64,000 nucleotides of DNA from Terriglobia bacterium (lineage in GTDB: Bacteria > Acidobacteriota > Terriglobia > JAIQFV01). Location: NCBI GenBank assembly GCA_020072965.1, contig JAIQFY010000006.1, positions 1-64,000 on the forward strand. The letters are read 5' to 3'. The position numbers were made by a program, and so were the translations under genes. This document shows positions 29,580 through 46,658 of the stretch, in pieces. The notes beneath the pieces were generated by a model. That model had not been told where the DNA came from, searched no databases, and was given only the letters and a program-made list of their open reading frames with translations. The first letter of the stretch is position 1, and every line of letters starts with the position of its first letter.

Positions 29580-31460
<1,881 letters not shown>

Positions 31461-31539
31461 CTAAATGTATCGGGAGATCTGGGCTGTCGAGGACGCGACG
31501 GACCTCGTCCCGTTTTCACAATTCGCTCGGCGAACCCCA

Positions 31540-31559
31540 AAATCTCCGTACGGAGATTT
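31540..31559. promoter_or_regulatory. Perfect 20-nt palindrome AAATCTCCGTACGGAGATTT in the thiC leader / 3' of the heptosyltransferase gene; candidate operator or weak terminator
   Basis: 8-bp arms plus a GTAC centre. On the minus strand it is followed by TTTTGGGG. Confidence 0.35.
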
Positions 31560-31612
31560 CAAGTATATCACAAGTCACGGCGCCCTGGTCGGGCTGAGGA
31601 CGGCACCATGCT

Positions 31613-32713
31613 TCATTCCAGCATGCGAATCAATTCGGTGAAGACCTCATCAACCGAAAGCTGTGAAAGGGGGTTTTTCTTGAGGAATCGACACTGTGCG
31701 CCCAGCGGCCGGTAGTGTTCCGTGACTCCGATACTGAACAGGCCCAGCGTCGGCGTTCCGACGGCAGCACTCATATGCATGGGGCCGGTGTCGTTACTCA
31801 CGATCGCGGTGCAACGGTTCAACAACGCCGCGAGTTGCGGGATGGCTTCGGCCCGGTCAGGTCCGCCGATAGCAGCGGCCGCCGTGTTTCCGTCCGCCTG
31901 CATGTCCCGGGTGATCCTTTGGCACAAAGCGGCTTCGTGGACCGCAGAGAAGTTCACGAAGCCGGCACGACGCCCGTTTTCCCGCGCATGGCTTGAGACT
32001 CGACCGGCCAGTTCGATGAAACGTTCCACCGGCCATGTGCGGACCTCCCCTGAGGCCGACATCTGAAACCCGTACACCTCATCCAGTCCTAGCAACCCCT
32101 GTTGCTCCCAGAATTGAAGGGCCATGGCCTCAGCGGCTGGCGGCACCTTGAGGCGGGGAGTAACGGGGTCGCCGAGCGGCAGAGGTGGACGATCCTCCGG
32201 TGCGGTCTCGGAGGACCGGCCACCTGTCGTGTGTGGATGAGGGTTTTCCGGGGCGAGACTTTGTACTACCCTGCAGAACATTTGAGCGACGAGAAGAGAT
32301 TTATCTTCGGTTACCGGCGGGAGATTAAAGCAAAACCCCCAATAGGGCTTTCTAAATCTCTTCAGGCCAACCCGCCACCGGGCTCCCGTCCAAAGGACGA
32401 GCAGTTCAGATTCGCGGAATCCGACCAGGTCAATCGCCAGATCAAACTTCCGCCTCCGCATCTCATTGGCAAACTGGAAGATCCTGCGAATCGACGAAAT
32501 CTTGTTTCCATCGCGCAGGGCCACCCGATCCAAGGCGATGATCTCATCCACGGCCGGGACCATCTTCAGGACTGGCGCACAGCGGTGTCCGGTGAGGTAG
32601 CTGATGTGCGCTTCGGGGAAAAGCTTGCGGCACAACCGCACGGCGGGCTCGGACAGAACGACGTCACCCAGACGCGCCCAGCGAATAATTAAGATGGTTT
32701 TCGGTGAAATCAT
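31613..32713 (-). CDS. Glycosyltransferase family 9 (ADP-heptose:LPS heptosyltransferase, RfaF/WaaC/WaaQ-like)
   Basis: N-terminal ILIIRWARLGDVVLSEPAVRL and C-terminal AIVSNDTGPMHMSAAVGTPTLGLF are GT9 signatures. Confidence 0.8.
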   Translation of the reverse strand: MISPKTILIIRWARLGDVVLSEPAVRLCRKLFPEAHISYLTGHRCAPVLKMVPAVDEIIALDRVALRDGNKISSIRRIFQFANEMRRRKFDLAIDLVGFRESELLVLWTGARWRVGLKRFRKPYWGFCFNLPPVTEDKSLLVAQMFCRVVQSLAPENPHPHTTGGRSSETAPEDRPPLPLGDPVTPRLKVPPAAEAMALQFWEQQGLLGLDEVYGFQMSASGEVRTWPVERFIELAGRVSSHARENGRRAGFVNFSAVHEAALCQRITRDMQADGNTAAAAIGGPDRAEAIPQLAALLNRCTAIVSNDTGPMHMSAAVGTPTLGLFSIGVTEHYRPLGAQCRFLKKNPLSQLSVDEVFTELIRMLE

Positions 32714-33049
32714 TCAATTCAAGAGAAATCTTGCAGGGCCGCAAAACCGTGTGCCCCCCGATGGCTGAGTGAAAGGGCGGTTCATAATTTTTTTTGAACC
32801 TGATCGGCATCGGGATGGAACTCATGCACCTGTCTGGCCCGTTTTTAAGGAGGCCCCGATGAGGGCCCAAGCTCCGCCCCGGCGCGCGCCCCTTCAGCCG
32901 AAGGTTTGATGTTAGGGAGAGGGAAAACTTTTGTCAAACGATGGGGCGCTAAAGCCGGACAAGAAATTAAGCCGATGCGAGAACATGCAGACAGCCCTCG
33001 CAGGGAGGCAAGTGATGATTCTCCAGATAGGGACGGAGGTTGGTATGGT

Positions 33050-34705
33050 TCACCGTGATAGGTTTGAACTGACCTTGGAAGGGGTGCTCAAATCGACTGC
33101 CGGGGATCCTGGTCTGGATCCCGGGCGTGATTCTCCGGACATTGGAGAGGCCACCTGTGACCGGCCGCCCACGCCGACTTTGCGGGCTGTGGATTCATTC
33201 AAGATATCCAATTCGCACTCGCTCCGGGCGAGAACCTCTTTCCACATGTGCTCATTGTAGACGCAGCCGGGGTCACCCGCCTGGACATCCCCCGTATAGC
33301 TTTCGGCCCGGGCGCGACAGCCTCCGCAGAAGAATCGATAGTCACAGACGCCGCAATGGTCGCCGCGATCATCCCGGTCGCTCAGGATCGCTTCCAGGGG
33401 TTGGTTCCAGATCTCCGCGAAAGAAGATTTGCGAAGGTCGCCGATGGTCCGGGTCGGCATGTAGACGCACGGGTTGACCTGACCGTTGGGCTGGATGGAA
33501 CAATAGCAGCGATGTGCCCCGCAGCCGCCGATGTACTTGGAGACCACGCGCGCTTCCTGCCCCCGGCCGGAGCCGCCATGTCCCATCGCCATCATGCCCT
33601 CAGGATCGCCAAACATCAGACAGGCCCTCCCGAATTGAGGCGCCGTCGACATGACGCTTATCTTTCCTTCGTTCAAGGTCTGCTGAAGGAGTCTCAATAA
33701 CGCTTCGCGTTGCGAGGGCGACATGTCTTCGTGAGCCATTTCCACACCCCGTCCAACAGGGATGAAGTTGAAATGGACAAAAGTGTTTGCGCCGAGTGAA
33801 ACCGCGAGGTTGATCATTTCCCGTGCCTGCGCGACGGTGTCCCGGGTGAAACAACAGGCAATTCCGCATCGCATCCCCGCCGCACTCACATTCTTGATTC
33901 CCTCAATGGACCGGGCCCAGGCGCCCTTCGACTGGCGAAAGTCATCGTGGATGGAAGGATCCACAGAATCCAACGAGACCTCCACGTACTTAACCCCCAG
34001 GGAAGCGAGACGCTCGCAGGTGCGGGGTGTGAGCAGGGTTCCGTTGGTTGCGAGCGTCGCATATACCAGCTTTTGCCGGGCTCGTTCCAACACCGCCCAC
34101 ACGTCGGGGTCGACCAGTGGCTCACCGCCCGCCAGGGCGATCAAGGGAACGAGGTTTTCTGAAAGCTGGTCCACCACGGCCAACTTCTCGGCCCGGTTCA
34201 GCTCGTCGGAGCCCCGCTTGTGAATCGCGTCCTGATAACAGTGCTTGCAGGACAGGTTGCAGGCGTTGGTAATGTTCCAAACCACGAGCAAGGGAGAGAT
34301 GAATCGCTGGGGGGTCAGCAGACCGTGGATCGCCACCGAACGAGCGGTGTTCAGCAGCGTCCGCGTTGTGGGCCAGTGATGAAAGACCTTTTCCACGGCA
34401 CGCTCGGGCGAAATCCGTGTCTTGGCAACAAAGTAATCGATGGCTTTGTGGACCGGGGCATACTTGATCTTCTCATAGAGAGAGGCGTCGGGATTGCGGT
34501 AGGAATAAAAGATATTTTCCATGGGCGTGTGCCCATTGGGGCCCTTCGTCAAGTGCTTCAGGATCCTCCGGGTAACGGGATGGTTGAGGTACCTCTCAAA
34601 GTCGTGGGGAGTGGGGGGAGCCGCCTGGGTCAGTTTGGGAACGTTTGGCCGCTTGGCGGTCTTGATGCGAGTGCCGTCAGGGGTATACATAGCGGGAAAA
34701 TCCAT
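33050..34705 (-). CDS. Radical SAM enzyme with C-terminal SPASM-type auxiliary cluster motifs and a ~130-aa N-terminal extension
   Basis: CNLSCKHCY (CX3CX2C) core and G-rich SAM motif (LAGGEPL). Downstream motifs GGCGAHRCYCSIQPNGQVNPC and CGVCDYRFFCGGC resemble SPASM-type auxiliary-cluster motifs. It has a low-complexity ~60-aa C-terminal tail. Confidence 0.8.
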   Translation of the reverse strand: MDFPAMYTPDGTRIKTAKRPNVPKLTQAAPPTPHDFERYLNHPVTRRILKHLTKGPNGHTPMENIFYSYRNPDASLYEKIKYAPVHKAIDYFVAKTRISPERAVEKVFHHWPTTRTLLNTARSVAIHGLLTPQRFISPLLVVWNITNACNLSCKHCYQDAIHKRGSDELNRAEKLAVVDQLSENLVPLIALAGGEPLVDPDVWAVLERARQKLVYATLATNGTLLTPRTCERLASLGVKYVEVSLDSVDPSIHDDFRQSKGAWARSIEGIKNVSAAGMRCGIACCFTRDTVAQAREMINLAVSLGANTFVHFNFIPVGRGVEMAHEDMSPSQREALLRLLQQTLNEGKISVMSTAPQFGRACLMFGDPEGMMAMGHGGSGRGQEARVVSKYIGGCGAHRCYCSIQPNGQVNPCVYMPTRTIGDLRKSSFAEIWNQPLEAILSDRDDRGDHCGVCDYRFFCGGCRARAESYTGDVQAGDPGCVYNEHMWKEVLARSECELDILNESTARKVGVGGRSQVASPMSGESRPGSRPGSPAVDLSTPSKVSSNLSR

Positions 34706-34802
34706 CCTCCACGTTGGTGCCTAGCCGGGGATTTTCCCTGGGGAGGCCCGGGGACTTACTTGATCAAGGCCGGCGAGCCACCGGCCTTGACAAATTCTGC
34801 GT

Positions 34803-36458
34803 CTAATGTGAGCCATTCTTTTTGAACGGCACCGAGTACTTCTTCTCAATCATTTCCCTGAACGTCGGCCCGGAATTGTAGGCACAGAAGGGGTAAATGA
34901 GGCCGTTGGGCGCGGCATAATGGATGATGCAGCGCTTCACGCGCTCGACGTCGTAATTGTAGGAATCCATGAAGTGCATCCCGGCCACCATCAGCGTCCT
35001 GTAAGTGAATGTGCCGTCCTTGCCGCCTCGGCCGTATTTCTTGTCGGTCATCCCTTGCAGGGTCTGCAGGAACTTGGGGAAAGTCAACCCTTTGGGGGCG
35101 TACTCTGGTTTGAAGTACTTTTGCAGGGATTGCCATACCTTGATCTTGGTAAAGAACTTGAAAGTGGCTCGGTTCGTCTCCCGTGAAATGGTGTCGACCG
35201 TCTGCAGCATAGCGCCGATGTCAACAAAACGGGTGATCGGCACGGCTTCCTTGCGGTCTTCGCTCACGAACAGATAGGTGCCGATGGAGCAGTGAGGATG
35301 GCTGGTCAACTGGGTGGTTTCCTCGCCTTTGATGGCACTCAGCAGCTTAGAAAACGGCGTGACGCATGACAGCGGGAACCAATCCTCATAGCGATTCGCC
35401 AGCCCGGTCTGCTCCTCGACGCATCGCGCCACATCCGTCATCGTAAATCGCTTGGCTTCCCGTTCCCGCTTAGCAATTCGTCCGGTAAAGGTGACCGGCT
35501 GGAAGCTGATCGCGCTCGTGCAATCCACGTTTTCAATGGCCAACTTGATGATGTCGCCGATCTGGTGATCGTTCAGCCCCTTTACGATGGTGGGGACAAA
35601 ACAAATCTTCAGGCTGGCTTTTCGGCAATTTTCGATGACCTTGAGTTTCTGCTCATACAGGGATTCACCGCGCGTGCGCTTGTAAATGTCGTCGCAAACG
35701 CCGTCGAATTGCAGATACAAGGTATGCAAACCGGCCTCTTTGGCCGCCATCGCGAAATCCAGGTCGAGGAACTTGATGCCATTGGTGGCCGCCTGGAGGT
35801 GGGAGAACCCCATTTCCGCGGCCATGCGGAGGATCTCCAGGAACCGGGGGTGAAGCGTCGGTTCGCCGCCCGAGAACTGAACTACCCGGCAGGCGACGGG
35901 CCGCTCGTTGCGCAGCGCCTGCAACATCGTCCGGACGTGCTCCAGGGAGGGTTCATAAAGGTAGCCCGACGCATTGGCATTGGCAAAACAGACCGGACAG
36001 GTCAGATTGCACCGGTTTGTGAGATCGACGTTCGCCAGACCGGTATGGGAGGTGTGCATGGAGCACAAACCACACTGTTCGGGGCATCGTGTGGCACTGG
36101 GAATTGCAGGGTTAGAAACTCCCCGGTTGTCACCGAAGTGCCAGCGCTCCATTTTCAGGTACATCTTGGCGTCGGAGTAACAGACATCCTTGACGTATCC
36201 GTGCTCGGGGCAGGTCTTCTCCATCATGACCTTGCCGTCCTCTTCGAACACCAGGGCGTCAATCAGCTTTGTGCACTCCGGGCAAAGGGACTGGGTCACC
36301 TTCGGCAATCCCACATGGGGCGGGTCAATGCGCGCGCCCGTGTAAGTCGTCTTAGGCTGAATGATCTGGTGGGCTGTAAATTGAAACCGATCCTCTTTTT
36401 CCTCTGCCGACGGCAGGTCGATGGTCTGGGGTTGGTCCTGAATTGTCTGTGTACTCAC
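34803..36458 (-). CDS. Multi-cluster radical SAM enzyme with an N-terminal Cys3His zinc-ribbon/rubredoxin-like element; tetraether-lipid-synthase (Tes / GDGT-MAS)-like candidate
   Basis: GTG start preceded by GAGGAGGAG. CPEC...CPEH ribbon, an extra CX3CX2C (RCPEQCGLC) and the canonical radical-SAM CX3CX2C (NRCNLTCPVCF), GGEPT, and a ~250-aa C-terminal domain. The Tes assignment is by remembered architecture, not by search. Confidence 0.7.
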   Translation of the reverse strand: MSTQTIQDQPQTIDLPSAEEKEDRFQFTAHQIIQPKTTYTGARIDPPHVGLPKVTQSLCPECTKLIDALVFEEDGKVMMEKTCPEHGYVKDVCYSDAKMYLKMERWHFGDNRGVSNPAIPSATRCPEQCGLCSMHTSHTGLANVDLTNRCNLTCPVCFANANASGYLYEPSLEHVRTMLQALRNERPVACRVVQFSGGEPTLHPRFLEILRMAAEMGFSHLQAATNGIKFLDLDFAMAAKEAGLHTLYLQFDGVCDDIYKRTRGESLYEQKLKVIENCRKASLKICFVPTIVKGLNDHQIGDIIKLAIENVDCTSAISFQPVTFTGRIAKREREAKRFTMTDVARCVEEQTGLANRYEDWFPLSCVTPFSKLLSAIKGEETTQLTSHPHCSIGTYLFVSEDRKEAVPITRFVDIGAMLQTVDTISRETNRATFKFFTKIKVWQSLQKYFKPEYAPKGLTFPKFLQTLQGMTDKKYGRGGKDGTFTYRTLMVAGMHFMDSYNYDVERVKRCIIHYAAPNGLIYPFCAYNSGPTFREMIEKKYSVPFKKNGSH

Positions 36459-37198
36459 TCACTCCTCCTCGAATTGGAATTCTGCTTGATCTGGATCGCG
36501 TCCCTGAGGGACCGCCTGAATCTAACCTGAGTTGAGAAAGAATCCTCCCCTTGAGAATCTAGACGACTGGGTTTCGTTCAGACTGGCAGCCGCCCGGTCG
36601 GCAACTGCGTGGCGATTTAAGCCTATAGTCAGCCGAAAGTTGGCTTGCGGTTTGGTCTCGAGACTTCGTCTCATAGGCCCGGATGGGGCAGGGCCCGACC
36701 GAGGATTGAATTCTACAACGCCAGCGTGTGGTGTCAAGTGGCTAATTATCTTTGAGTTACAGCTAACGTCAACGTGAGATTGTGACTCGGATCGTTGGGT
36801 CCATGATACAATTCTCAACTTGAAGTGGTGAGCGAGGTTGATTCTGGCTGCACTGAAGAGCGTCTCTATGGAATTCAGGATGTGCCCGGACACTCCAAAA
36901 GGATGACTGTTAGGTTCCCAGACTCTGTCCGGATTCGCGACTGAACTAGCGGTTGCCCCGCTTCCATCGCGCAACTGGAAAGACCCTCTGCCAGCGCCAA
37001 GGCAAGTGGAGTCATTGCATAGACCCCCGGTGGTGTCTTTCTTTTGGGTTGGCGAGACGGGGGTGCCCATGAAGTCGATGTGGCGAATTGTCGTTTGAGG
37101 GCGAAAATGCTTAAGAAGATGGGGTCTGTGTTCGTAAATTCGAGCAGCGTTTGTTGGCGTGAATCCGTGTCCCGGAAGAATTTGAGGAGCCTGGAGTA

Positions 37199-37936
37199 TT
37201 GAGAATGATCTTCGAAACCTTTCCAGTCGGTCTACTGCAATGCAATTGCGCCATCCTGGGCGATGAGGTGACGCGTGAAGCGATCGTGATTGACCCCGGC
37301 GATGAGGTGGAGCGCATTCTTGCGGCGCTCAAGAAGCATGACCTCAAGCTCCGCAGGATCATGAACACACACACGCACATCGATCATGTGGGCGCCAATG
37401 CGGAACTCCGGGACCGGACGGGCGCGGAGGTCTGCCTCCACAAGGCGGACCTGCCTCTTCTCGAGAATCTGAAGAGGCAGGCGGCCATGATCGGCATCCC
37501 CGAACCGCCCGCATCGAGGGTTGATGCCTTTCTTGAAACAGGGGACGTGATTCGGTGCGGATCGATACACTTTGGGGTACTTCATACACCCGGACACACG
37601 CCCGGAAGCCTGACCTTTGAGACGGAAATGTTGAGCACGGGTGGAAAGACTGGGAAGAGTTCCGGCCTGATTTCAGCGGATACGGATATTCAACCTGTCA
37701 CTCTACTCGAAGGGAACAAAGCGCCGAGGCAAGTTCTCTTCACCGGCGACACGCTCTTCATGTCCTCGATTGGGCGGACCGACTTGTGGGGGGGCTCCTA
37801 TGAAACGATTCTGAAATCGTTGGCCGGGATTTTACGGAAATACGACGACTCTACTCTCGTTTATCCCGGCCATGGACCCGCGACCACGATCGGCTACGAG
37901 CGGCAGTTCAATCCATTTTTGCAGGAATTAATGTAG
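37199..37936 (+). CDS. MBL-fold metallo-hydrolase (glyoxalase II / hydroxyacylglutathione hydrolase-like)
   Basis: THTHIDH (HxHxDH) motif and a later GHTPGS. Confidence 0.85.
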   Translation: MRMIFETFPVGLLQCNCAILGDEVTREAIVIDPGDEVERILAALKKHDLKLRRIMNTHTHIDHVGANAELRDRTGAEVCLHKADLPLLENLKRQAAMIGIPEPPASRVDAFLETGDVIRCGSIHFGVLHTPGHTPGSLTFETEMLSTGGKTGKSSGLISADTDIQPVTLLEGNKAPRQVLFTGDTLFMSSIGRTDLWGGSYETILKSLAGILRKYDDSTLVYPGHGPATTIGYERQFNPFLQELM

Positions 37937-37955: not shown

Positions 37956-39830
37956 CTACTGATTCTCCTGGATGTATTCCAGGGTAGTCCTGTCCCCGCT
38001 TCGGATTTGTGCTGCCAGGGATCGCGCAACGGGCTCTCTCCGTCGCAGGTAACGATCCGCCACGGTTGCCCTTCCTTCGTCGTCTGAATGATCCGCCAGG
38101 CCCTTCAGTAAACGGGCGCCATGAAACAGGGAAAACATCGTGGCGAGCCGTTCGGCGTTCAGCAAGGCATAGCTGAAGTGTTTTAGGTCCTCCCGTGAAA
38201 AGGCCGACTTTCCTTGCCGGATCAGTTGGATCCAACTTAAATCCTTCCCGGCCATCCGGGAGCCTTTCTTTTTTTCGCGAAGAATATCCAGGACCAGGTA
38301 TTGGATTGAGCTCGATATTTCATCTCGAATCGCCAGCAGGTTCTTGGTACCCGCAGCGGCACGCGACTTGGCCGCTTTCAGGGCCAGGCGGCTGCTTAAA
38401 AAGTCTTTCGGGCGGGACATGGCCCAGTTGATCTGGTCCTTGAGCGCCATGAGAGCCTGGATCTGCGAAGTCCCTTCATAGATGGCCGTGATGACCGAAT
38501 TGCGCAAGTGCCGCTCGACTTCATACGATTCGAAAATGCCATAGCCGCCGTGAATCTGGAGGGCCTTCCGGGTGATCTCGACCGCCTTTTCCGCCCCCCA
38601 GTACTTGATCAAGGGAGTCAGCTCGCGGGAGGCATGCTCCAGTTTCTTGACAAGCTGTTTCACTGTCCTGCCTTCGGCTTCAGTCAACTTTCCTTCGGCC
38701 AGGAGTTTCTTCAGGCCGACCCGTCGGTCCTCCATCTGGGTGGCCTCGTAAATCATGGCGCGCAGCGCCCGGATTTCCAGGTCCATATCCAGCAGCATAT
38801 CCGCCACGAGTTCGTGCTGAGCAATGGCCTTCCCCATTTGCCGGCGCTGCCGGCCATAGTCGTAGGCCTTTCGGTAAGCCGCCTGACAAATTCCCAGGGC
38901 CTGAATGCCGACCGCCACACGCGCTTCGTTCATGAACGACAGGATGTACTCCCAGCCCTTGCCCGGTTCTCCAATCAGGTACCCGATCGAGTTATCGAAA
39001 TACTGTTCCAGGGTGGGCGAGCCGCGGAGCGACAACTTGTGTTCCGGTTTCCCGATCTCAAAATTTTTCACGCGTTTGCCGTCACGCTCAATAAAGCGCG
39101 GGACCAAATGCATAGAGAGCCCTTCCAGGCCCTTTGAGTGGGCGTCTGTGCGGGTCAGGACCAGGGCGATGTCGCCGCAACCATTGGTGATAAATTGTTT
39201 TCGCCCGGTGACATGCCAGGCTCCATCGCCGGCATCGACGGCCGAAGTGGTGAGGGCGCCGACGTCGCTCCCGGCTTCCGGTTCCGTCATGGCAACCGAA
39301 CCTGAAATTTCGCCGCTCGCCAATTTAGGGATATATCGTTTTTTGATCTCATCGCTCGCGAATCGAAGCAGCATCATGGCGGGGCTTTGATAAAAAGCGA
39401 GGAAACTGAGGGTGTTGGGACAGGCGGTCGAGATCATTTCAACCATCATGGCATTGACGGTGAATGGAAAGTTCCAGCCCCCCAACTCTTTGGGCAGACT
39501 GACCGCGAGGATTCCGAGTTGCTTCGCCCCTTCGAGATTGCTCACGAGACCCTCGGGAAGGGTGACTTCTCCGTCCTTCCATTGAATCCCTGCTTGGTCG
39601 ATTCCGGCGGCCCGGGGCTCCACTTCCCGGGCACAGAATTCACCCACCAGGCTTAATACTTCCTCGTATTGCTGCCTCGTTTCGTCGACATTAAGCGGAC
39701 CATCGCTCTCTTCGTGCCAAGCCGCAGTGACCTGATTCCAATCGACGGCATGATGAAAATGAAATTGGAGATCCTCGTTTTCAGCAAAGAGATTTTTGGA
39801 GGGCATGAGGGGATCCTTGTTATCCGCCAT
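37956..39830 (-). CDS. Acyl-CoA dehydrogenase with C-terminal extension (long FadE-like)
   Basis: ACAD N/M/C domains with a C-terminal ~200-aa extension. The true start MADNKDPL is at 39830, and the ORF-track N-terminal extension merely reads through the REP pair. Confidence 0.9.
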   Translation of the reverse strand: MADNKDPLMPSKNLFAENEDLQFHFHHAVDWNQVTAAWHEESDGPLNVDETRQQYEEVLSLVGEFCAREVEPRAAGIDQAGIQWKDGEVTLPEGLVSNLEGAKQLGILAVSLPKELGGWNFPFTVNAMMVEMISTACPNTLSFLAFYQSPAMMLLRFASDEIKKRYIPKLASGEISGSVAMTEPEAGSDVGALTTSAVDAGDGAWHVTGRKQFITNGCGDIALVLTRTDAHSKGLEGLSMHLVPRFIERDGKRVKNFEIGKPEHKLSLRGSPTLEQYFDNSIGYLIGEPGKGWEYILSFMNEARVAVGIQALGICQAAYRKAYDYGRQRRQMGKAIAQHELVADMLLDMDLEIRALRAMIYEATQMEDRRVGLKKLLAEGKLTEAEGRTVKQLVKKLEHASRELTPLIKYWGAEKAVEITRKALQIHGGYGIFESYEVERHLRNSVITAIYEGTSQIQALMALKDQINWAMSRPKDFLSSRLALKAAKSRAAAGTKNLLAIRDEISSSIQYLVLDILREKKKGSRMAGKDLSWIQLIRQGKSAFSREDLKHFSYALLNAERLATMFSLFHGARLLKGLADHSDDEGRATVADRYLRRREPVARSLAAQIRSGDRTTLEYIQENQ

Positions 39831-39856
39831 GTAGGGGCGCACAGCTGTGCTCCCCC
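39831..39856. repeat. REP-like palindrome, family 2 (GTAGGGGCGCACAGCTGTGCTCCCC), abutting the acyl-CoA dehydrogenase start codon
   Basis: GTAG hallmark plus an imperfect palindrome. Confidence 0.55.
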
Positions 39857-39882
39857 CGAATTCGGATGTTACCAGGCTGGTT

Positions 39883-39907
39883 GGGGCGCACGGCTGTGCG
39901 CCCCTAC
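39883..39907. repeat. REP-like palindrome, family 2 (GGGGCGCACGGCTGTGCGCCCCTAC), inverted partner of 39831-39856
   Basis: It ends CCCCTAC. The pair lies between fadJ/B-like and the acyl-CoA dehydrogenase gene. Confidence 0.6.
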
Positions 39908-39957
39908 AATCGATCAACTAGCCATAATGCGGCTCTAGAAACGCATTTGCTCCTGAT

Positions 39958-42114
39958 TTACGAATAGAACGATTCCTTAGATTCCGCCATGCGAACGATC
40001 ATTTCCGAGGGTTTAAAGCGGTCTCCCCATTTCTTCTGGAGTGATTCGAGGTTGCGCAATACGTTTTCCAGACCCATTGCATCCATATAGCGAAAAGGCC
40101 CCCCCTGAAAGGGCGGGAATCCCAGGCCCATCACGGCGCCGATATCTCCATCCCGTGGTGAGCGGAGGATGCCCTCCTCCAGGCAACGAGCGCATTCATT
40201 CAGCATCGCCATGGAGAGCCGCGATTGAATGTCGCCCGCGACCACAGGTTTTCGATTTCTTCCACCGGGTAACAGATCGTAGATCGTGGGGTCGACTCCA
40301 ACCTTCCGGACTTCCTCCTTGCGGTTAAGCACGTACTGGTAAAACCCTTTTCGGAGTTTGCGGCCGAGGCGTCCATTCTGAATCAACTGTTCCATGCTGG
40401 AGGGCGGTTTCAGTCGTTCGCCAAACGCCTCCAGCATGATCTTCCCCACTTTTGCCGCGACATCGATGCCGACTTCATCCAGCAGGGTCATGGGCCCCAC
40501 GGGAAACCCGAAATCGATCATGGCCTGGTCCAAGGCTTCCACAGGTGCGCCTTCTTCCAGGATGAAGGAAGCCTCGTTCATGTAGGGGGACAGAATCCTG
40601 GAGGTATAAAACCCCACACCATCGTTGACCACGATGGGGAACTTCCCGATCAACTTCCCATATTCCACGGAGGTGGCAATCGTCTGCTTGGAGGTTTGCC
40701 GGGTGACGATGATCTCGAGCAAAGGCATTTTGTGGACGGGTGAGAAGAAGTGGAGCCCGATGAATTGCTCCGGACGCCTGGAGGCTTCCGCCAGTTTGGC
40801 GATCGAAATCGAAGAGGTGTTTGAGCCCCACACGCAGTCGTCACGAAGATGTGGCTCGACTTCCCGAACCACCTGATGTTTGAGGTCAACATCCTCGATG
40901 ACAGCCTCGATGATCAGACCGCAGGTCGAAAAACTGTTCAACTCGGTTGTGGCGGAGACACGATCCTTCAACTGCTGGAGTTCCAGTCGTGAGATCGACT
41001 TTCTGCGGAAGCGATCATCGAAGACCCTGTAACACGCCGTGAGGCCCTTCAAACAGGCTTCTTCGGAAACATCGCGGAGGCGGGCGTTGACCCCGGCACT
41101 CGAACAAACCGCGGCGATACCCGCTCCCATGAATCCAGCCCCCAGAATGCCCACCGGGGCGACAGCTTGCGGCCGGATGGAAGGGCCATCCATTCCCGGA
41201 TCCTTTTTCAAATCAGTGGTCGCAAAGAAAAGGTGAATCAATTGCCGGCAGGTACTGGTCATGGCGAGATCCCCAAACGCCTTGGATTCCTCCATGTACC
41301 CTTTCACGGGCCCTTGCGATACGCCCGCCCGGATTGCTCCCAGGGCGCGCAAGGGAGCAGGATAATGGCCATGTGTTTTCTCCCGGATCATTTTCTCGGC
41401 CTGGCGGAAGAGCAGCCATCGGCCCACGGGATTGCATTCAAGCGCCCAGGCAAGCAGCCCCTGGGGCCGGTGCCTTCGCGGCCGGATCTTCCCCTCACCG
41501 AGTTCTCCAGCCCGGGTAAGCGCGACGTGGAGGAGCAGGGGACGGGGAACGACCTCGTCGACGATTCCTGTCCGGAGCGCCTGCTGAGGTCTGTAATTAC
41601 GGCCACTGGTCGCAATCTCGATGGCGTTTTGAAGTCCTACAAGGGGGGGCAGGCGTTGGGTTCCACCGGCTCCCGGGAGCAAACCGAGTTTCACTTCAGG
41701 CTGTCCCAGCTGTGTTTTCCTGTCATCGGCACATATCCGGTAATGGCAGGCCAGCGCGACCTCCATGCCACCGCCCAGGCAGGCACCCTGGATGGCAGCC
41801 ACGACCGGGATCTTCATATCCGCAATCTTTTGCAGGAGCCTCTGTCCGGAGCGGGAGGCTTCAGCCGCCTGGCTCGCGGATTCGAACTTCAGGAATTCTT
41901 GGATGTCAGCGCCAGCGATAAAGGTATTCTCCTTGTCGCTGATCAGAACGATCGCCCGAAGGTCGGAGCGATGTCTGAGGTCATCAAAAATCTCTTCGGC
42001 CTCTTGAACCACTGCGGCGGTCAGCTTGTTGACCTTCTCCCCTTCGAGGTCTAAGTGAAGAAGGGCAATCTGGTTTTCATCAACGGATAGTTTGAATGCG
42101 GGCATAAGATTCAT
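39958..42114 (-). CDS. Fatty-acid oxidation complex alpha subunit (enoyl-CoA hydratase + 3-hydroxyacyl-CoA dehydrogenase, FadJ/FadB-like)
   Basis: N-terminal crotonase fold ([22 protein letters not shown]) and 3HCDH NAD-binding motif [14 protein letters not shown]. Confidence 0.9.
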
Positions 42115-42139
42115 GCAGGGCGGGATTGAGCTGTAATTG

Positions 42140-43324
42140 TTAGATGGCTCCCTGGCTTCTGAGGAATGAGATTTCAGGTCTTGAATACCCCAACCGGGTC
42201 AGAATCTCATCGGTATGTTCCCCCAGCTTCGGGGCGGACTGATACACCGGCGCCTCTAAGCCTGAAAACTTCAACGGTGATCCCAGTTGTTTCGAGACTC
42301 CCCCGGACGGAAGAGCGACTTCCTGAAGCATGCCTCGCTGCTGGATTTGTGGGTTTGTAACAACCTCGTCCAGTGAATCCACAGGTTCGCAGCAAACATC
42401 AAGTCCTTCAAACGCAGCCACCCACTCGCCCTGGGTGCGGGAGGCCAAAGTCCCGGCGACTACCTGAAACACCTGCTCGCGCTCATCTCCCGTGGCAAAC
42501 TGCTTTGATGTCAATTCGCGCCGTCCGATCGCTCCACAAAAATTCTCCCAGAATTTAGGTTCGATCGCGCCGAGGGCCAGGAACCTCTCATCCGCCGTCC
42601 GATACACATTGTAAAAGGGGACTGAGCCTGTGAGCTCCATCTTCTCGCCCACCTTCAGCGAATCGCCTGCCATGGTTTGAGAGAAGGCGACCGGGAGCAG
42701 CGCCAGGAGCCCGTCCAGCATCGACACATCGACATGTTTTCCCTCGCCGGATTTTTGTCTCGCGAGGAGGGCGATCAAGATGCCCGCTAGACAGAGCATG
42801 GCCCCGGAAGCCAGGTCGGCTATTTGAATAGGGGGGATGACGGGTGTTCCGCTGGCGTCCGTGTTCAATCCCAGCAGTCCCGCACGGGCAATATAGTTGA
42901 TGTCGTGTCCGGCCCTGTTGCGATAGGGGCCGTTCTGTCCATACCCGGAGATGGAACAGTAGATGAGTCGGGGGTTGTGTTGTTTCAGGCTGTCATAATC
43001 GATCCCCAACCGTGCCGTGACGCTGGGGCGGAAGCTCTCCACCAGGACGTCGGCCTCCCTTGACAACTTCAGAAAGACTTCCTTCGCCCCGGACGATTTC
43101 AGGTTAAGCGTCAACCCTTTCTTGTTGCGGTTCAATTGGAGAAACAGGGCCGATGTCCCGTCCACAAAGGGGGGGCTCAGTCGAACCGGATCCCCCAGCG
43201 CCGGCTCTTCAATTTTGATAACCTGTGCTCCCCAATCTCCCAGCACCATGGTGGCATAAGGCCCCGGCAGGTGGCGTGAAAGGTCAAGGACAGTGAGGTC
43301 ATTTAACATGATGAATTCTGTCAA
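42140..43324 (-). CDS. Family III CoA-transferase (CaiB/BaiF; alpha-methylacyl-CoA racemase / formyl-CoA transferase-like)
   Basis: LxGxxVLDLS...GPxAxxxLxDxGAxVIKIE N-terminal motif and an interlocked-dimer family-III architecture. Confidence 0.85.
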   Translation of the reverse strand: MTEFIMLNDLTVLDLSRHLPGPYATMVLGDWGAQVIKIEEPALGDPVRLSPPFVDGTSALFLQLNRNKKGLTLNLKSSGAKEVFLKLSREADVLVESFRPSVTARLGIDYDSLKQHNPRLIYCSISGYGQNGPYRNRAGHDINYIARAGLLGLNTDASGTPVIPPIQIADLASGAMLCLAGILIALLARQKSGEGKHVDVSMLDGLLALLPVAFSQTMAGDSLKVGEKMELTGSVPFYNVYRTADERFLALGAIEPKFWENFCGAIGRRELTSKQFATGDEREQVFQVVAGTLASRTQGEWVAAFEGLDVCCEPVDSLDEVVTNPQIQQRGMLQEVALPSGGVSKQLGSPLKFSGLEAPVYQSAPKLGEHTDEILTRLGYSRPEISFLRSQGAI

Positions 43325-43344
43325 GGCGTTCCGGCGGGACGTTT

Positions 43345-44649
43345 CTATCTGTCATAGTGCTCGAGCACCATGGCGGCGCCGTGCCCTCCCGCCGCACAGG
43401 CAGTCACCAGGCCAAACTCTGATTGCGTTCGGACCAGCTCGTTTGCCAGGGTCGTGACCATGCGTGCCCCCGTCGCCGCAAAAGGGTGTCCAATGGCGAT
43501 CGAGCCACCATAGCGATTGAGCTTTTCGTAATCGATTTCTCCTATCGGTTCGCTGCGATTCAACTTTTCTTCCGCCCACTTCCTCGATTCAAACATTTTG
43601 ATTGTCGACAGGACAGAGGCGGCGAATGCTTCATGCATCTCGATCGCGGAAAGATCGTCCCACTTGATGGCGGCGCGATCCAGGGCGACGGGGGTGGCAT
43701 AGGCGGGGCCCATCAGCATTTGATCTTTAGGCGAGTGTGCAGAGAACGCGTAGGATCGGACAAAGGCAAGCGGTTTCACGCCGAGGGCCAGGGCCTTCTC
43801 TTCACTCACGAGCATGACTGCGGCAGCGCCGTCGGTCAATGGGCTCGCATTGGCGGCCGTAATCGTTCCATAACGTCGATCGAAGACCGGTTTCAATCCC
43901 GCCATCGATTCCAAGGTGGTGTCGTGTCGAATCACATTGTCTTCCTGCACCACTTTCTTTTCTTCGACAAGGAAAGCGGGCGAGATCTCGCTTCTGAGAA
44001 TACCCTTGCGTTGCGCGGCTGAAGCGCGGATGTGACTGAGGAGAGCAAACTCGTCCTGTTCCTGACGTGAGATCCCGTTGATCTGGGCCATCTGTTCCGC
44101 CGACTGTCCCATCGTGAGTCCGGTCGAGGGTTCCTCCAGCGCCGGGGTATCGGGAATGAAATCCCGAAGTCTGAACTTCAATCCCGTCGTGAGCTTTTCT
44201 CTGAAGCTACGCCCACGATTGAGTTCGAGGAACAGATCCCTGGCATGCTTGCCGAAAGTCAAGGGGACATCCGACAGCGATTCCGCTCCACCCGCCACGA
44301 TGACGTCCGCCCGTCCCGCCGCGATCTGATCGACTCCATTGGCGATGGCCACCAGGGACGAGATGCAGGCCAGGGAAACTGTGTATGCCGGGACTCCGGA
44401 AGGAATTCCGCACCCCAGCGCAATTTCCCGTGCAATATTGGGCATCTTCAGGGCCGGTACGACCACGCCAAAGATCATCTGGTCAATGTGACGCAGGTCG
44501 ATCCCGCTGCGCGCCAGCAGTTCAGTGACTGCAATTTTCCCGAGGTCGACAGCACCGAGGTGTTGGAAATGAGTCCAGGCTTTTATGAACGGGGTCCGAC
44601 ATCCCGCCACGATCGCGGTGCGTCGACCGGGCGAAAGTGAAGGCAGCAT
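43345..44649 (-). CDS. Acetyl-CoA C-acyltransferase (3-ketoacyl-CoA thiolase, FadA/FadI-like)
   Basis: Thiolase active-site regions, including the C-terminal CAAGGHGAAMVLE. Confidence 0.9.
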   Translation of the reverse strand: MLPSLSPGRRTAIVAGCRTPFIKAWTHFQHLGAVDLGKIAVTELLARSGIDLRHIDQMIFGVVVPALKMPNIAREIALGCGIPSGVPAYTVSLACISSLVAIANGVDQIAAGRADVIVAGGAESLSDVPLTFGKHARDLFLELNRGRSFREKLTTGLKFRLRDFIPDTPALEEPSTGLTMGQSAEQMAQINGISRQEQDEFALLSHIRASAAQRKGILRSEISPAFLVEEKKVVQEDNVIRHDTTLESMAGLKPVFDRRYGTITAANASPLTDGAAAVMLVSEEKALALGVKPLAFVRSYAFSAHSPKDQMLMGPAYATPVALDRAAIKWDDLSAIEMHEAFAASVLSTIKMFESRKWAEEKLNRSEPIGEIDYEKLNRYGGSIAIGHPFAATGARMVTTLANELVRTQSEFGLVTACAAGGHGAAMVLEHYDR

Positions 44650-44764
44650 GAATTATTCTCCTGTGGATGATCGCAAGAAGCATAGGGGAAAGAGTTCGGG
44701 CTTTCAAGGGAGGAGTTTTTCTCCATCTGCGATGACTTCCTGTGCCGTACGCTAAGGATGCACG

Positions 44765-44791
44765 CCCCGAGATCCCGGGGACGGTTTTTTT
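44765..44791 (+). terminator. Plus-strand intrinsic-terminator-like hairpin (CCCCG-agatc-CGGGG) + T8 in the gap between the minus-strand fadD-like and thiolase genes
   Basis: Hairpin immediately followed by TTTTTTTT on the plus strand. No plus-strand gene lies upstream, so it may terminate a short plus-strand (antisense or sRNA) transcript. Confidence 0.3.
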
Positions 44792-44825
44792 GAGGCCTCC
44801 TGGTCTTCCGGAGTGTTCCGGGAGA

Positions 44826-46658
44826 TCATGATCGTCCCGTTGGGGCGGCCCGGCTCTCCTCGTAAAGACGGCTGATCTCACGGGAGTATTTCTCAGCGAT
44901 AAATTTCCGCCGCAGCTTGAGCGTCGGAGTCAGCTCACCGGTCGCCTCGGAAAAATCAACCGGAAGGATTCGAAACTTCTTGATTTGCTCAAATCGCGCC
45001 AATTGCTGGTTGACCCGGTTCACGATGTCGGCGATGCGTTCAATGACTTGCGGGTGTTCCGTGAGTTCGCGGTATGTCCCTTCACCCACGCCCAGCCGGC
45101 GAGCCAGCGGGGGGAGTGTTTCAGCGCTCAGCGTCAGAAGGGCCGTCAGGTAGTTGCGCCGATCGCCCACTACCATGGCCTGACTGATGAGGGGGTCGTG
45201 TTTCAGAAGATTTTCGATGTTCTGAGGAGAAATATTCTTTCCGGCGGAAGTAATAATCAGCTCCTTTTTCCGGTCCAGGATGGTGAGAAAACCCTCATCA
45301 TCAATCCGCCCAATATCGCCGGTATGATACCAACCGTCGACCAGGGCTTCTTGTGTGGCCCGAGGGTCTTTGAAATACCCGAGGAAAACATTGCGGCCCC
45401 GAACTAGAATCTCCCCGTCGTCCGCGATTCTCACGTCCACTCCCGGCAACGGCTTCCCCACGGTTCCAAACTTGAAATGGTCAAAATCGCTGACGGTGGT
45501 GGGGGAGGTCGTCTCGGTGGCCCCATACGCTTCAAAGATCGGCAATCCCACAGCATGAAAGAACTCCAGGACTTCCCTCGACAGGGGAGCTCCCCCAGAG
45601 GCGAAGAAACGGAGGCGGCCTCCCAACCGCTTCCGCAGTCTTTGAAAAGCCAACCGGTCTGCCAGCCAGTGCTTGAAACGAAGGCGTGGAGGGAGGGCAA
45701 GTTTCGAGATTTGATAGGGGGTGGCTTCTCGTCCGACCTTGATCGCCCATTGGAACAGCGCCCGTTTAAACCCCGGGCTGGATGCAACCGTTGCCAGGAT
45801 TCGCTCAAGAGCTTTCTCAAAGAAACGCGGGACTCCGGTGACCACTGTCGGGGCCAATTCTGCCAGGTTTTCCGGGACCGTCTCCATCCGTTCCGCATAG
45901 CCGACCTGTGCCCCGAGGTAGACTGGGAGATACAGACTGCCGAGCCGTTCCAAGGCATGAGCCAGGGGGAGGAATGAGAAGAATACATCCCGGTCAGAAA
46001 TCATGTTGAGGTTGGACAGGGTCTCACATACAAACATCAGGTTATCGTGGGCAAGCATGACGCCTTTGGGAGGCCCCGTGGTGCCCGACGTGTAAATGAT
46101 GATCGCGAGCTGCTCCCGGTGCAGCCTGCTGAAGGAGGGGTCCAGATTCACCGGGTGTGCAACCTCGAGCCGCTCTCCTTCCCGGAGGAAATCATCCCAC
46201 AGGATAAGGAAATCGTCTCCGCCGCTCACCCCGGTCGCATCAATGATGACAGCTTTTTCGAGAGATGGAGCCTGGGTACGTATCTCTTTGATTTTTTCAA
46301 GCTGTCTCCGATTTTCTACGACCACCAGCTTGGCCCCGGAATGGCTGAGGATGTGCGCCGTGTCTTTCGGGACGTTGGTGGCATAAATTGAAACTGAGAT
46401 GGCTCCCAAGGTCAGGATAGCCAGATCAACCATCGCCCACTCGGGTCGATTGTTGGAAAGAATAGCGATGACCTCGCCTTCCCGCACCCCCTGATTCGTG
46501 AGGGCTGCCGCGAGATGACGGACCGATCGGCCAAACTCACCCCAGGTGATGTCGATGTAGCGACCGCCGCGCTTCACCCGCAGCGCAGTCTGCTCCGGCC
46601 GGGTGCGCACGTGTTTCCAGAAGGAATGGACAATGGTCGCTTCCGAGGGCATTGGCAA
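44826..46658 (-). CDS. Long-chain-fatty-acid--CoA ligase (AMP-dependent synthetase, FadD-like)
   Basis: AMP-binding motif IIYTSGTTGPPKGVMLAH, plus the downstream adenylation motifs. Confidence 0.9.
   Translation of the reverse strand: MPMPSEATIVHSFWKHVRTRPEQTALRVKRGGRYIDITWGEFGRSVRHLAAALTNQGVREGEVIAILSNNRPEWAMVDLAILTLGAISVSIYATNVPKDTAHILSHSGAKLVVVENRRQLEKIKEIRTQAPSLEKAVIIDATGVSGGDDFLILWDDFLREGERLEVAHPVNLDPSFSRLHREQLAIIIYTSGTTGPPKGVMLAHDNLMFVCETLSNLNMISDRDVFFSFLPLAHALERLGSLYLPVYLGAQVGYAERMETVPENLAELAPTVVTGVPRFFEKALERILATVASSPGFKRALFQWAIKVGREATPYQISKLALPPRLRFKHWLADRLAFQRLRKRLGGRLRFFASGGAPLSREVLEFFHAVGLPIFEAYGATETTSPTTVSDFDHFKFGTVGKPLPGVDVRIADDGEILVRGRNVFLGYFKDPRATQEALVDGWYHTGDIGRIDDEGFLTILDRKKELIITSAGKNISPQNIENLLKHDPLISQAMVVGDRRNYLTALLTLSAETLPPLARRLGVGEGTYRELTEHPQVIERIADIVNRVNQQLARFEQIKKFRILPVDFSEATGELTPTLKLRRKFIAEKYSREISRLYEESRAAPTGRS

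Follow-up and report, generated by a model that had tools for sequence, protein, structure and literature searches.

A tes-gms gene pair in a soil Acidobacterium: a probable module for making and cross-linking membrane-spanning lipids

On a 64,000-nt stretch of DNA (the window) from an uncultured soil Acidobacterium of the Terriglobia, two radical SAM genes lie next to each other and beside a GT9 glycosyltransferase gene, which raises the question of what the two enzymes act on. The initial annotation had read one of them as an enzyme of the tetraether lipid synthase (Tes/GDGT-MAS) type and had left three options for its partner: a lipid, the glycan handled by GT9, or a peptide in a RiPP-like module. 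Both ORFs, of 551 aa each, and the Glyco_transf_9 domain were found where it had placed them (Table 1). The radical SAM genes run head to tail on the minus strand, with the tes homolog as the 5' gene and a gms homolog as the 3' gene, followed by GT9. The tes-gms pair probably constitutes a module that makes and cross-links bacterial membrane-spanning lipids. Family membership, conservation of cofactor ligands, domain architecture and recurrent gene order are observed, while we infer the substrates, the products and the co-transcription of the two genes.

Table 1. Features of the tes-gms locus, in window coordinates
Feature	Position	Strand	Basis
sigma-70-like promoter candidate for tes-gms	36710..36737	-	consensus scan, 11/12 matches
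tes homolog, Tes/GDGT-MAS-family radical SAM enzyme, 551 aa	34803..36458	-	NCBIfam, PDB 7TOL match
Tes, rubredoxin-type Cys3His iron site (C59, C62, C83, H86)	36201..36284	-	alignment, Zn_ribbon_HMPTM
Tes, N-terminal auxiliary [4Fe-4S] motif (C125, C129, C132 and H135)	36054..36086	-	alignment
Tes, radical SAM CX3CX2C (C150, C154, C157)	35988..36011	-	aligns to C98/C102/C105 of GDGT-MAS
perfect 8-bp GC-rich hairpin AAGGCCGG / CCGGCCTT, 7-nt loop	34766..34788	-	direct sequence reading
gms homolog, radical SAM/SPASM enzyme of the GMGT synthase family, listed at 551 aa	33050..34705	-	Archaeoglobus match
Gms, all-helical N-terminal domain (aa ~35-127, seven short helices)	34325..34603	-	AF2, hhalign
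Gms, radical SAM CX3CX2C (C149, C153, C156)	34238..34261	-	family alignment
Gms, SPASM domain	33263..33523	-	Pfam SPASM E 2e-9
Gms, disordered Ser/Pro/Gly-rich C-terminal tail (aa 502-551)	33053..33202	-	pLDDT 27-39
GT9 (heptosyltransferase-family) gene	31613..32713	-	Pfam Glyco_transf_9 E 2e-21

The 5' gene and archaeal tetraether lipid synthase

The tes homolog starts with GTG, and a conserved GAGGAGGAG Shine-Dalgarno sequence lies just 5' of it. Its product scores 588.1 bits on the NCBIfam Tes equivalog NF045702 (cutoff 450) and matches the M. jannaschii GDGT-MAS structure (PDB 7TOL) with E 4e-135 over query residues 50-546, at 43.4% identity across 488 columns; in Pfam it matches Zn_ribbon_HMPTM (E 1e-18) as well as Radical_SAM (E 9e-26). 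The three motifs on which the initial annotation had based its Tes reading are all present. The first, CPEC...CPEH (C59-x2-C62-x20-C83-x2-H86), has the spacing of C9-x2-C12-x20-C33-x2-H36 in GDGT-MAS, the second, RCPEQCGLC (C125-x3-C129-x2-C132), corresponds to the ligands C73/C77/C80 (Lloyd 2022), and the third is the radical SAM CX3CX2C. Beyond the latter, later in the gene, C390, C510 and C525 correspond to the C-terminal cluster ligands C338/C455/C470, and M494 to the labile Met439, so that in the alignment all metal ligands of the M. jannaschii structure are kept, the labile Met included. [quoted passage not shown] The annotation had also envisaged that the best characterised homolog might be an anSME or a cofactor enzyme bearing little resemblance to Tes, and this is not what we found for the 5' gene.

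[quoted passage not shown] It differs from the archaeal enzymes in its bacterial host, in some 50 additional N-terminal residues and in its substrate, which by analogy would be an iso-branched acyl/alkyl glycerolipid on G3P and not archaeol. Terriglobia MAGs encode proteins 95-96% identical to it, one of them named "tetraether lipid synthase Tes" by NCBI, and proteins from Bryobacteraceae and Solibacter that carry the name Tes are about 72% identical. The Tes proteins of Ca. Solibacter usitatus (Acid_5929) and Ca. Koribacter versatilis belong to the same phylum and length class (545-551 aa), and these acidobacterial enzymes are the published candidates for brGDGT or iso-diabolic tetraester synthesis.

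The 3' gene and the Gms family

The gms homolog probably starts at its second ATG, at 34690, giving a 546-aa product, because the family consensus opens "MY..." and close relatives are 546 aa long. As the initial annotation had it, the product combines SPASM motifs with an N-terminal domain that lacks an assignment: Pfam returns Radical_SAM (E 5e-26) and SPASM, and nothing over the first ~135 aa even at E <= 10. This N-terminal domain proves to be the helical domain that defines the Gms family. AF2 confidently models a helical N-terminal domain (pLDDT mostly 85-96), a radical SAM barrel and a SPASM domain, and hhalign pairs the bacterial with the archaeal N-terminal domains at 97.2% probability (E 4e-11, 98 columns), in agreement with the helical domain of ~100 aa in the published description of Gms. 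The product also matches a protein of the Archaeoglobus sp. P0536 MAG at 36% identity (E 3e-93, residues 36-508 against 7-474), which we call Gms by its genus and its gms-gmm gene pair context. Gms proteins verified or named in archaea are those of M. okinawensis (METOK_RS04425), T. guaymasensis, T. celer, P. furiosus and Archaeoglobus; like them, our protein has an AhbD-like radical SAM/SPASM core behind a helical domain, its radical SAM motif being similarly placed (C149 versus C123), and it differs in some 25 additional N-terminal residues and a disordered tail of ~50 aa, for which there is no Pfam match and, past about aa 500, no consensus in family alignment A1.

The cysteines C149/C153/C156 are invariant across 49 family members and align to CNLRCKHC of the Archaeoglobus protein. 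The seven canonical SPASM cysteines (C395, C413, C451, C454, C460, C463, C481) are likewise kept in the Archaeoglobus protein, and together with the family-specific C400/C402 and the upstream C362 they are all invariant in alignment A1; the SPASM domain is predicted to bind two auxiliary [4Fe-4S] clusters.

It is very unlikely that this core belongs to a tetrapyrrole enzyme of the AhbD/NirJ type (a heme b or heme d1 decarboxylase or a relative) that adjoins tes incidentally. AhbD and NirJ, of heme b synthesis and heme d1 biosynthesis, do provide the closest curated HMMs, and NirJ2 (237 bits), AhbD (233) and NirJ (198) cover the radical SAM and SPASM core end to end, with TIGR04053 falling within ~215-237 bits. 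All of these scores are below cutoff, however, and less than half of the 500-650 bits required by the curated AhbD/NirJ-type models. For this gene the annotation's concern about cofactor enzymes was therefore borne out as to the nearest models and not as to the scores. The archaeal long forms give the identical sub-threshold AhbD/NirJ2 pattern, which Garcia et al. describe for Gms likewise, whereas true short-form relatives, which fall into a clade of their own, reach 310-430 bits on AhbD/NirJ2. In a tree of the core domain, the phylogenetic placement that the annotation had called for, the gms product groups with the archaeal long forms and is separated from the short proteins of the AhbD/NirJ type; this tree was built quickly by neighbour joining, with 50 bootstraps, and it places one "short" sequence within the long-form clade. 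The extra N-terminal domain, absent from AhbD, the repeated linkage to tes and a genomic context without further ahb or nir genes in the window also speak against a tetrapyrrole enzyme.

Characterised SPASM enzymes mostly act on peptides, and the solved folds nearest to our protein are SuiB (best, E 1e-16), PqqE, SkfB and anSME, as would suit a RiPP-like module, formed by the pair or by the SPASM enzyme alone, whose precursor peptide goes unrecognised. Yet the protein carries the Gms helical domain and no RRE/PqqD domain, and the scan of the flanking gaps that the annotation had suggested yielded no short ORF that is Cys- or Gly-rich or conserved; the lone long ORF there (182 aa) is disrupted by an indel of ~190 nt in the 85%-identical relative L002. 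The adjoining Tes homolog, moreover, is a lipid enzyme by all tests, and we consider a peptide target scarcely probable. A third comparison is with GrsA/GrsB, which are also radical SAM enzymes forming C-C bonds in membrane-spanning lipids and have homologs in Acidobacteria. Grs proteins are of the B12-binding type, with an N-terminal Rossmann-like domain and without auxiliary clusters, while our protein combines a helical N-terminal domain with a SPASM domain and gives no B12-binding match in Pfam. By its sequence, then, the 3' gene product is a member of the Gms family and not a peptide maturase or a ring synthase of the Grs type.

Gene order, promoter and the GT9 neighbour

The gene order tes-gms recurs: tes lies directly 5' of gms on the same strand in 8 of the 35 homologous loci that are informative. 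Tes identity in these loci spans 41-96%, and in four of them it is just 41-46%. This recurrence indicates that the adjacency is not due to chance. In the other loci (27/35) tes is absent from the 2-10 kb around the gms-type gene, which makes the clustering a minority arrangement. In S. usitatus the brGDGT candidates are scattered (Tes Acid_5929, Grs homolog Acid_5783), in contrast to the direct succession seen here, and gms at this locus adjoins tes rather than gmm, the partner of the Archaeoglobus gene.

A promoter candidate (TTGACA-16 nt-TAGAAT) lies ~250 nt 5' of the tes start, and the block CTTGACAC...TTGTAGAATTCA is kept in L002 and also in L003, where the proteins are just ~75% identical; its candidate role rests on consensus match and conservation. 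In the 97-nt tes-gms spacer the hairpin lacks a U tract, and a scan found no terminator-like site on the minus strand. Transcription of tes and gms as one unit from this conserved promoter is probable. The GT9 gene is probably a neighbour outside the module. It lies 3' of gms only in L002 and is missing from the other tes-gms loci, its product is under every NCBIfam heptosyltransferase cutoff, and there is a promoter-like site in the gms-GT9 gap (32909-32937). Because the adjacency is limited to close relatives and this site precedes GT9, a functional link is unsupported. Among the three options for the partner gene, the lipid alone is supported, through its Gms-family homology, and the glycan and the RiPP-like module are not.

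Proposed lipid pathway

The chemistry of Tes and Gms has been shown in archaea, where Tes links two lipids through the ends of their tails and Gms introduces the H-shaped cross-link (PMC9433317, PMC8941075, PMC11186832, PMC11214058). By analogy with GDGT-MAS, the radical SAM cluster of the Tes homolog would cleave SAM to a 5'-deoxyadenosyl radical, which would take a hydrogen off the terminal carbon of one lipid tail, and the substrate radical would stay bound to a sulfur atom in the C-terminal auxiliary [4Fe-4S] cluster until another SAM activated a second lipid at its tail and both termini were joined. With iso-branched C15 acyl/alkyl tails, this would give a C30 chain of the iso-diabolic-acid type, and the product would be a tetraester, or a brGDGT tetraether if an ester reductase (Ger/PlsA) were encoded elsewhere in the genome. 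Neither a Ger/PlsA nor an ElbD gene occurs in the window, so ether formation is unsupported at this locus. A link of Tes to acidobacterial brGDGT-type lipids is a published hypothesis (PMC8941075), and Chen et al. 2025, as cited in PMC13023045, reportedly found iso-diabolic tetraesters to be the product in Ca. Koribacter, which has Tes only, and brGDGTs to coincide with the presence of both Tes and Ger in S. usitatus.

That the substrates of the pair are instead isoprenoid ether lipids of the archaeal type, synthesised by the bacterium itself (GDGT/GMGT after horizontal transfer), is hardly probable. Tes and Gms are 43% and 36% identical to their archaeal counterparts, and the Grs genes of Acidobacteriae have been proposed to be horizontally acquired from Archaea, but isoprenoid GDGTs are known from no bacterium (PMC8941075), GGGP/DGGGP synthase-like genes are absent from the window, cultured Acidobacteria with orthologous Tes are reported to make brGDGTs or iso-diabolic tetraesters, and GDGT-MAS itself binds ordinary ester phospholipids.

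In the Gms step, the helical N-terminal domain, a putative lipid-binding cap, and the radical SAM barrel would bind the folded membrane-spanning lipid, presumed to be branched where the archaeal Gms substrate is isoprenoid, and a further C(sp3)-C(sp3) bond linking one C30 chain to the other would yield an H-shaped lipid of the brGMGT type. We found no report of a cultured bacterium making brGMGTs in the literature searched. Terriglobia are often aerobes, and Li et al. (PMC11186832) report Gms only from obligately anaerobic archaea, which counts against the proposal.

Alternatively, the Gms-family partner might act on the Tes product and install a C-C bond other than the H-bridge, either forming the cyclopentane rings of brGDGTs (by methyl-branch-to-chain cyclisation) or cross-linking a tetraester rather than a tetraether. 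The Gms-type family is common in Terriglobia, Bryobacterales and Acidoferrales (hundreds of close matches), including a 54%-identical homolog in Bryobacterales MAGs, and the gene is mostly located away from tes; brGMGTs go unmentioned in the main text of the culture study on S. usitatus. For the rings of brGDGTs no enzyme is verified, the sole candidate being a weak Grs homolog of 25-29% identity; rings in archaea, however, are made by B12-type Grs enzymes and not by SPASM enzymes. The bacterial clade has the invariant C400 and C402 as extra cysteines, where the Archaeoglobus protein has Phe/Phe, but the architecture of both the N-terminal domain and the core is clearly orthologous to that of archaeal Gms. 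Peat is, furthermore, rich in brGMGTs, and acidobacterial gms homologs dominate the bacterial ones there. Taken together, a different bond appears unlikely.

An H-bridge thus remains our preferred product, and a function of the bacterial Gms homolog as brGMGT synthase is likely by analogy with the archaeal enzyme. Garcia et al. 2024 (PNAS; PMC11214058) describe clusters of bacterial gms homologs with tes or mss, from Acidobacteria and Planctomycetes, and suggest these homologs to be brGMGT makers; their set includes 31 Acidobacteria, and the acidobacterial clusters with tes (SI Fig. S15) are arranged as here. The locus is therefore a further case of a bioinformatically predicted arrangement, the tes-gms pairing that was proposed in 2024, from sequence, as the likely source of bacterial brGDGT/brGMGT lipids.

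The tes homolog and its predicted metal sites

The two adjacent radical SAM reading frames described by the initial annotation are both present as proposed, and they are listed below together with the genes that lie downstream of them. Likewise, the annotation's comparison of the upstream gene with tetraether lipid synthase (Tes, or GDGT-MAS, the archaeal enzyme that joins lipid tails tail to tail) held up. The protein passes the NCBIfam equivalog NF045702 (588.1 bits, cutoff 450; model positions 2-485 of 486 covered), its residues 50-546 match the M. jannaschii GDGT-MAS structure 7TOL at an E-value of 4e-135, and the metal ligands are retained. The TrsS model stays below its cutoff (330 bits vs 490).

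Radical SAM gene pair and downstream genes
Feature	Position	Strand	Remark
tes homolog	34803-36458	minus	551-aa reading frame
gms homolog	33050-34705	minus	551-aa reading frame
GT9-family gene	31613-32713	minus	downstream of the gms homolog
thiC	29580-31451	minus	downstream of the GT9 gene; NCBIfam ThiC, 1073 bits

To compare the metal sites, the cofactor ligands of GDGT-MAS (Lloyd et al., 2022; PMC9433317) were mapped onto the tes homolog via the pairwise alignment, in which the two proteins share 43.4% identity over 488 aligned positions. All motifs previously read from the sequence were found, and each has its equivalent in the archaeal enzyme: C59-x2-C62...C83-x2-H86 corresponds to the rubredoxin-type iron site (C-x2-C-x20-C-x2-H) at C9/C12/C33/H36 with identical spacing, C125-x3-C129-x2-C132 to the N-terminal auxiliary [4Fe-4S] motif CX3CX2C at C73/C77/C80, and C150-x3-C154-x2-C157 to the radical SAM cysteines C98/C102/C105. 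H135 aligns with the GDGT-MAS histidine three residues past C80, and would thus be the counterpart of the liganding histidine, which carries no residue number in the paper. In GDGT-MAS, a C-terminal cluster held by three cysteines and the labile Met439 serves as parking site of the substrate radical (PMC9433317); its cysteines C338/C455/C470 are C390/C510/C525 in the tes homolog, and Met439 is M494. We therefore assign the protein to the Tes family with high confidence, as far as sequence can tell.

The nearest relatives of this protein, which comes from an uncultured Terriglobia MAG lineage, are encoded in Terriglobia MAGs (95-96% identity), and NCBI already lists one of them as 'tetraether lipid synthase Tes'. 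Proteins from Bryobacteraceae and Solibacter are approximately 72% identical, and by length and similarity the tes homolog is the counterpart of S. usitatus Acid_5929, the published brGDGT candidate.

The SPASM partner and its archaeal relatives

The second gene had been described as a SPASM-type radical SAM enzyme with an unassigned N-terminus. Indeed, its product matches the Pfam Radical_SAM and SPASM domains (the latter at 38.4 bits vs a cutoff of 21.5), while the N-terminal ~135 residues have no Pfam match even at E <= 10. Such an architecture is known from Gms, the GMGT synthase that introduces the H-shaped cross-link. Garcia et al. (2024; PMC11214058) describe Gms as a homolog of AhbD in the SPASM/twitch subfamily whose N-terminus is extended by ~100 residues (COG4001), with the extension forming a hydrophobic pocket. 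According to Li et al. (2024; PMC11186832), the M. okinawensis enzyme starts with a six-helix domain, after which come the radical SAM domain, a bridging region and finally a SPASM domain that carries two auxiliary clusters. The AlphaFold2 model of the gms homolog (pLDDT 83.8, pTM 0.83) consists, in order, of seven short helices within residues 35-127 (35-41, 43-52, 61-68, 76-81, 83-96, 100-108 and 111-127, all with high pLDDT), a barrel, a SPASM domain and a disordered tail. By profile-profile alignment with hhalign, the bacterial and archaeal N-terminal domains are homologous (probability 97.2%, E 4e-11, 98 columns).

The radical SAM cysteines C149/C153/C156 are invariant across 49 family members, and so are the SPASM cysteines (C395-x12-G-x4-C413, C451-x2-C454-x5-C460-x2-C463 and C481), which are also kept in the Archaeoglobus Gms and presumably bind two auxiliary [4Fe-4S] clusters. 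A fold search of the PDB returned generic SPASM enzymes alone because, to our knowledge, no Gms structure has been solved.

In an approximate neighbour-joining tree of the core region, built from 47 sequences and 343 columns with 50 bootstraps, proteins from Archaeoglobus sp. and Methanopyrus sp. served as proxies for the heterologously verified Gms sequences. The gms homolog falls within a 25-member clade that also holds Archaeoglobus, Methanopyrus, Methermicoccus, Bathyarchaeota and others, apart from the short AhbD/NirJ-like forms that lack the helical domain. This placement also bears on whether the protein could be a tetrapyrrole enzyme of the AhbD/NirJ type, a role contradicted by several lines of evidence. 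The AhbD model does align with it almost from end to end (positions 1-338 of 339, E 8e-69), yet scores 232.6 bits where the cutoff is 500. The best curated models, NirJ2, AhbD and TIGR04053, give 215-237 bits, all far under cutoff, and the tetrapyrrole equivalogs TIGR04545, TIGR04055, TIGR04051, TIGR04054 and TIGR04546 give 172-237 bits against cutoffs of 500-650. On the AhbD model, archaeal long forms, which have the N-terminal helical domain, score 190-313 bits and short forms 323-426 bits. The extra N-terminal domain and the genomic context likewise speak against a tetrapyrrole role.

The Gms assignment draws further support from the nearest archaeal proteins. A family profile search gave 3306 representatives at E <= 1e-30, the best 150 of which include archaeal proteins of Bathyarchaeota, Methanofastidiosum, Methermicoccus shengliensis, Diapherotrites and Promethearchaeota; these lineages all lie in groups given as Gms-bearing by Garcia et al. 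(PMC11214058). In Archaeoglobus sp., the gene for protein P0536 directly precedes and overlaps a gene for a B12-binding radical SAM protein, as in the gms-gmm arrangement, and the genus has been shown to make GMGTs (PMC11214058). In BLASTP, residues 36-508 of the gms homolog align with P0536 from its residue 7 onwards (36% identity, E 3e-93). On these grounds we have good confidence that 33050-34705 encodes a member of the Gms family, its clade placement being derived from proxies and an approximate tree. In the Archaeoglobus sp. MAG locus L089 (263-4314), two HGD-D and two BcrAD_BadFG genes precede the gms-gmm pair; we take these to be the domain families that compose the bacterial plasmalogen/ether-lipid enzymes PlsA and Ger.

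Prompted by the Grs homolog of S. usitatus, we also considered a Grs ring synthase. Grs enzymes are radical SAM proteins of the B12-binding type, with an N-terminal Rossmann-like domain and without auxiliary clusters (PMC13459092). The gms homolog, in contrast, carries a SPASM domain and an all-helical N-terminus with no B12-binding Pfam match, so this reading was dropped; GrsA and GrsB are thus set apart from it by family description.

At the gms start region (34690-34705), the listed ATG is directly abutted by GGAGG. The true start is probably the second ATG, at 34690, since this is where both the family consensus and relatives of 546 aa start (MYT...). Among Gms-type proteins, the metagenomic P0263 (956 aa) has its N-terminal domain (5-153) and core (608-944) split by an insertion of ~450 residues, which may be an intein; an intein-containing Tes variant has its own NCBIfam model. 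No Tes-Gms fusion proteins were found among long representatives.

Linkage of tes and gms and the surrounding genes

Gene order around the pair is the same over 20 kb in the related locus L002 (85-96% protein identity). For a broader view, we sampled 52 loci with long-form genes, drawn from both genomes and metagenomes, counting negatives only where at least 2 kb of sequence was available on both sides. The tes gene lies directly upstream of gms on the same strand in 8 of these (the window locus and seven others) and is absent from another 27 with such flanks. The pairs include an Acidoferrales MAG and the loci L019, L026, L029 and L043, whose Tes proteins are only 41-46% identical to that of the window. 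The pairing is thus recurrent and ordered, and therefore not due to chance, yet it is a minority arrangement. That bacterial gms homologs cluster with tes or mss was reported by Garcia et al. (PMC11214058), in agreement with the window. In the Acidoferrales locus L007, a second Tes-like gene (3044-5083, minus strand; 679 aa, 35% identity to the window Tes) lies immediately upstream in divergent orientation; it is similar to Acid_2410 (714 aa), which is the second and long Tes homolog in S. usitatus.

Transcription signals are consistent with joint expression. A sigma-70-like site upstream of tes matches at 11 of 12 positions, with its sequence kept in L002 and in a second homologous locus, L003, and the GTG start of tes follows a conserved GAGGAGGAG. 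A scan of the minus strand found no terminator-like site in the 97-nt spacer between the genes, and tes and gms are likely co-transcribed. The spacer holds a GC-rich hairpin (34766-34788, minus strand) with a perfect 8-bp stem, AAGGCCGG and CCGGCCTT around a 7-nt loop, and no U tract; it may act in RNA processing or stability, or as a weak attenuator. The region upstream of tes folds no better than shuffled sequences (z = -0.76), so a structured leader was not detected there.

The initial annotation had left room for two other roles, one on a glycan handled by the GT9 glycosyltransferase and one in a RiPP-like peptide module. The first was not borne out: GT9 and thiC lie downstream of gms solely in close relatives and the gms-GT9 gap holds a promoter-like site of its own, and for these reasons GT9 was left out of the module. 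The second, for which the SPASM domain would be the attraction, is contradicted by the data. The gms homolog has no RRE/PqqD-like domain even at E <= 10, and neither 32714-33049 nor 36459-37198 holds a conserved or Cys/Gly-rich short reading frame. A 182-aa frame upstream of tes (36522-37070) is interrupted in L002 by an indel of ~190 nt: relative to this 85%-identical locus, the window carries an insertion at ~36890-37090, in the gap that separates the MBL-fold gene from the tes promoter, and this insertion gives rise to the frame, which is spurious.

Upstream of tes lie this MBL-fold gene, in divergent orientation, and a beta-oxidation cluster (37956-46658, minus strand) encoding an acyl-CoA dehydrogenase, a FadB-like protein, a family III CoA-transferase, a thiolase and an AMP-dependent ligase. 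The cluster is also syntenic in L002 and L003, and in the Acidoferrales locus L007 an acyl-CoA dehydrogenase gene comes next after gms; this proximity may be coincidence or may mark a lipid-related neighbourhood. Elsewhere in the window, 51674-55621 encodes an AsmA/YhdP-like protein of 1315 aa, whose family has been linked to lipid transport, and 59537-60613 a tyrosine recombinase of the phage integrase family; GC content is 0.63-0.68 in positions 1-4000 and 0.51-0.58 in the remainder. Rfam gave no match in the whole window at gathering thresholds or in 31300-37300 at E <= 1. Accordingly, neither threshold revealed a TPP riboswitch in the 160-nt gap that forms the thiC leader (31452-31612, minus strand), an absence that is unusual for a bacterial thiC.

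Predicted products of the pair

By analogy with the archaeal enzymes, Tes would join the omega-termini of two glycerolipid tails, expected to be iso-C15 in Acidobacteria, by cleaving SAM twice and by way of an intermediate bound to a cluster, and Gms would then bridge both resulting chains by a C-C bond. According to Chen et al. (2025), as summarized in a later article (FEMS Microbiol Ecol 2026; PMC13023045), Ca. Koribacter, with Tes only, makes iso-diabolic tetraesters, while the presence of Tes and Ger in S. usitatus coincides with brGDGTs. The 64-kb window holds no Ger/PlsA, ElbD or B12-type radical SAM genes, and therefore does not tell an ester from an ether product. That bacterial Gms makes brGMGTs is a hypothesis of Garcia et al. 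(PMC11214058), repeated for Planctomycetota and Desulfobacterota of the Black Sea (PMC11868695); in the literature searched, we found no experimental assay of any bacterial Gms. We consider it quite probable that the tes-gms pair is a module for membrane-spanning lipids, and hold with moderate confidence, again by analogy, that brGMGTs are its product.

An acidobacterial Gms-type enzyme might instead form some other C-C bond, for example in the cyclopentane rings of cyclic brGDGTs, which underlie the CBT pH proxy, or in cross-links of tetraesters. Several observations would fit: the gene occurs widely across Terriglobia and Bryobacterales, mostly unlinked to tes, the literature searched reports no cultured bacterial brGMGT producer, and the main text of the S. 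usitatus culture study does not mention brGMGTs. In addition, C400 and C402, two further cysteines next to the SPASM clusters, are invariant in the bacterial clade but Phe in the Archaeoglobus protein. We regard this alternative as rather unlikely, and favour the H-bridge synthase.

Tes homologs were described for Acidobacteria in 2022 (Zeng; PMC8941075), followed in 2024 by acidobacterial gms homologs clustered with tes (Garcia et al.; PMC11214058). As both the idea and the pairing are already in the literature, the window adds an instance and detail rather than a concept: it is a further, uncultured Terriglobia example of the predicted module, which will not surprise the specialist, and the detail concerns ligand conservation, promoter conservation and the frequency of tes-gms linkage. 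Nevertheless, brGDGTs and brGMGTs serve widely as proxies for palaeotemperature and pH, and it is known only in part which organisms and enzymes make them. A compact two-gene construct such as this tes-gms pair, whose source is an abundant soil lineage, would be handy for testing the synthesis of brGDGT-type and H-bridged lipids by bacterial homologs.
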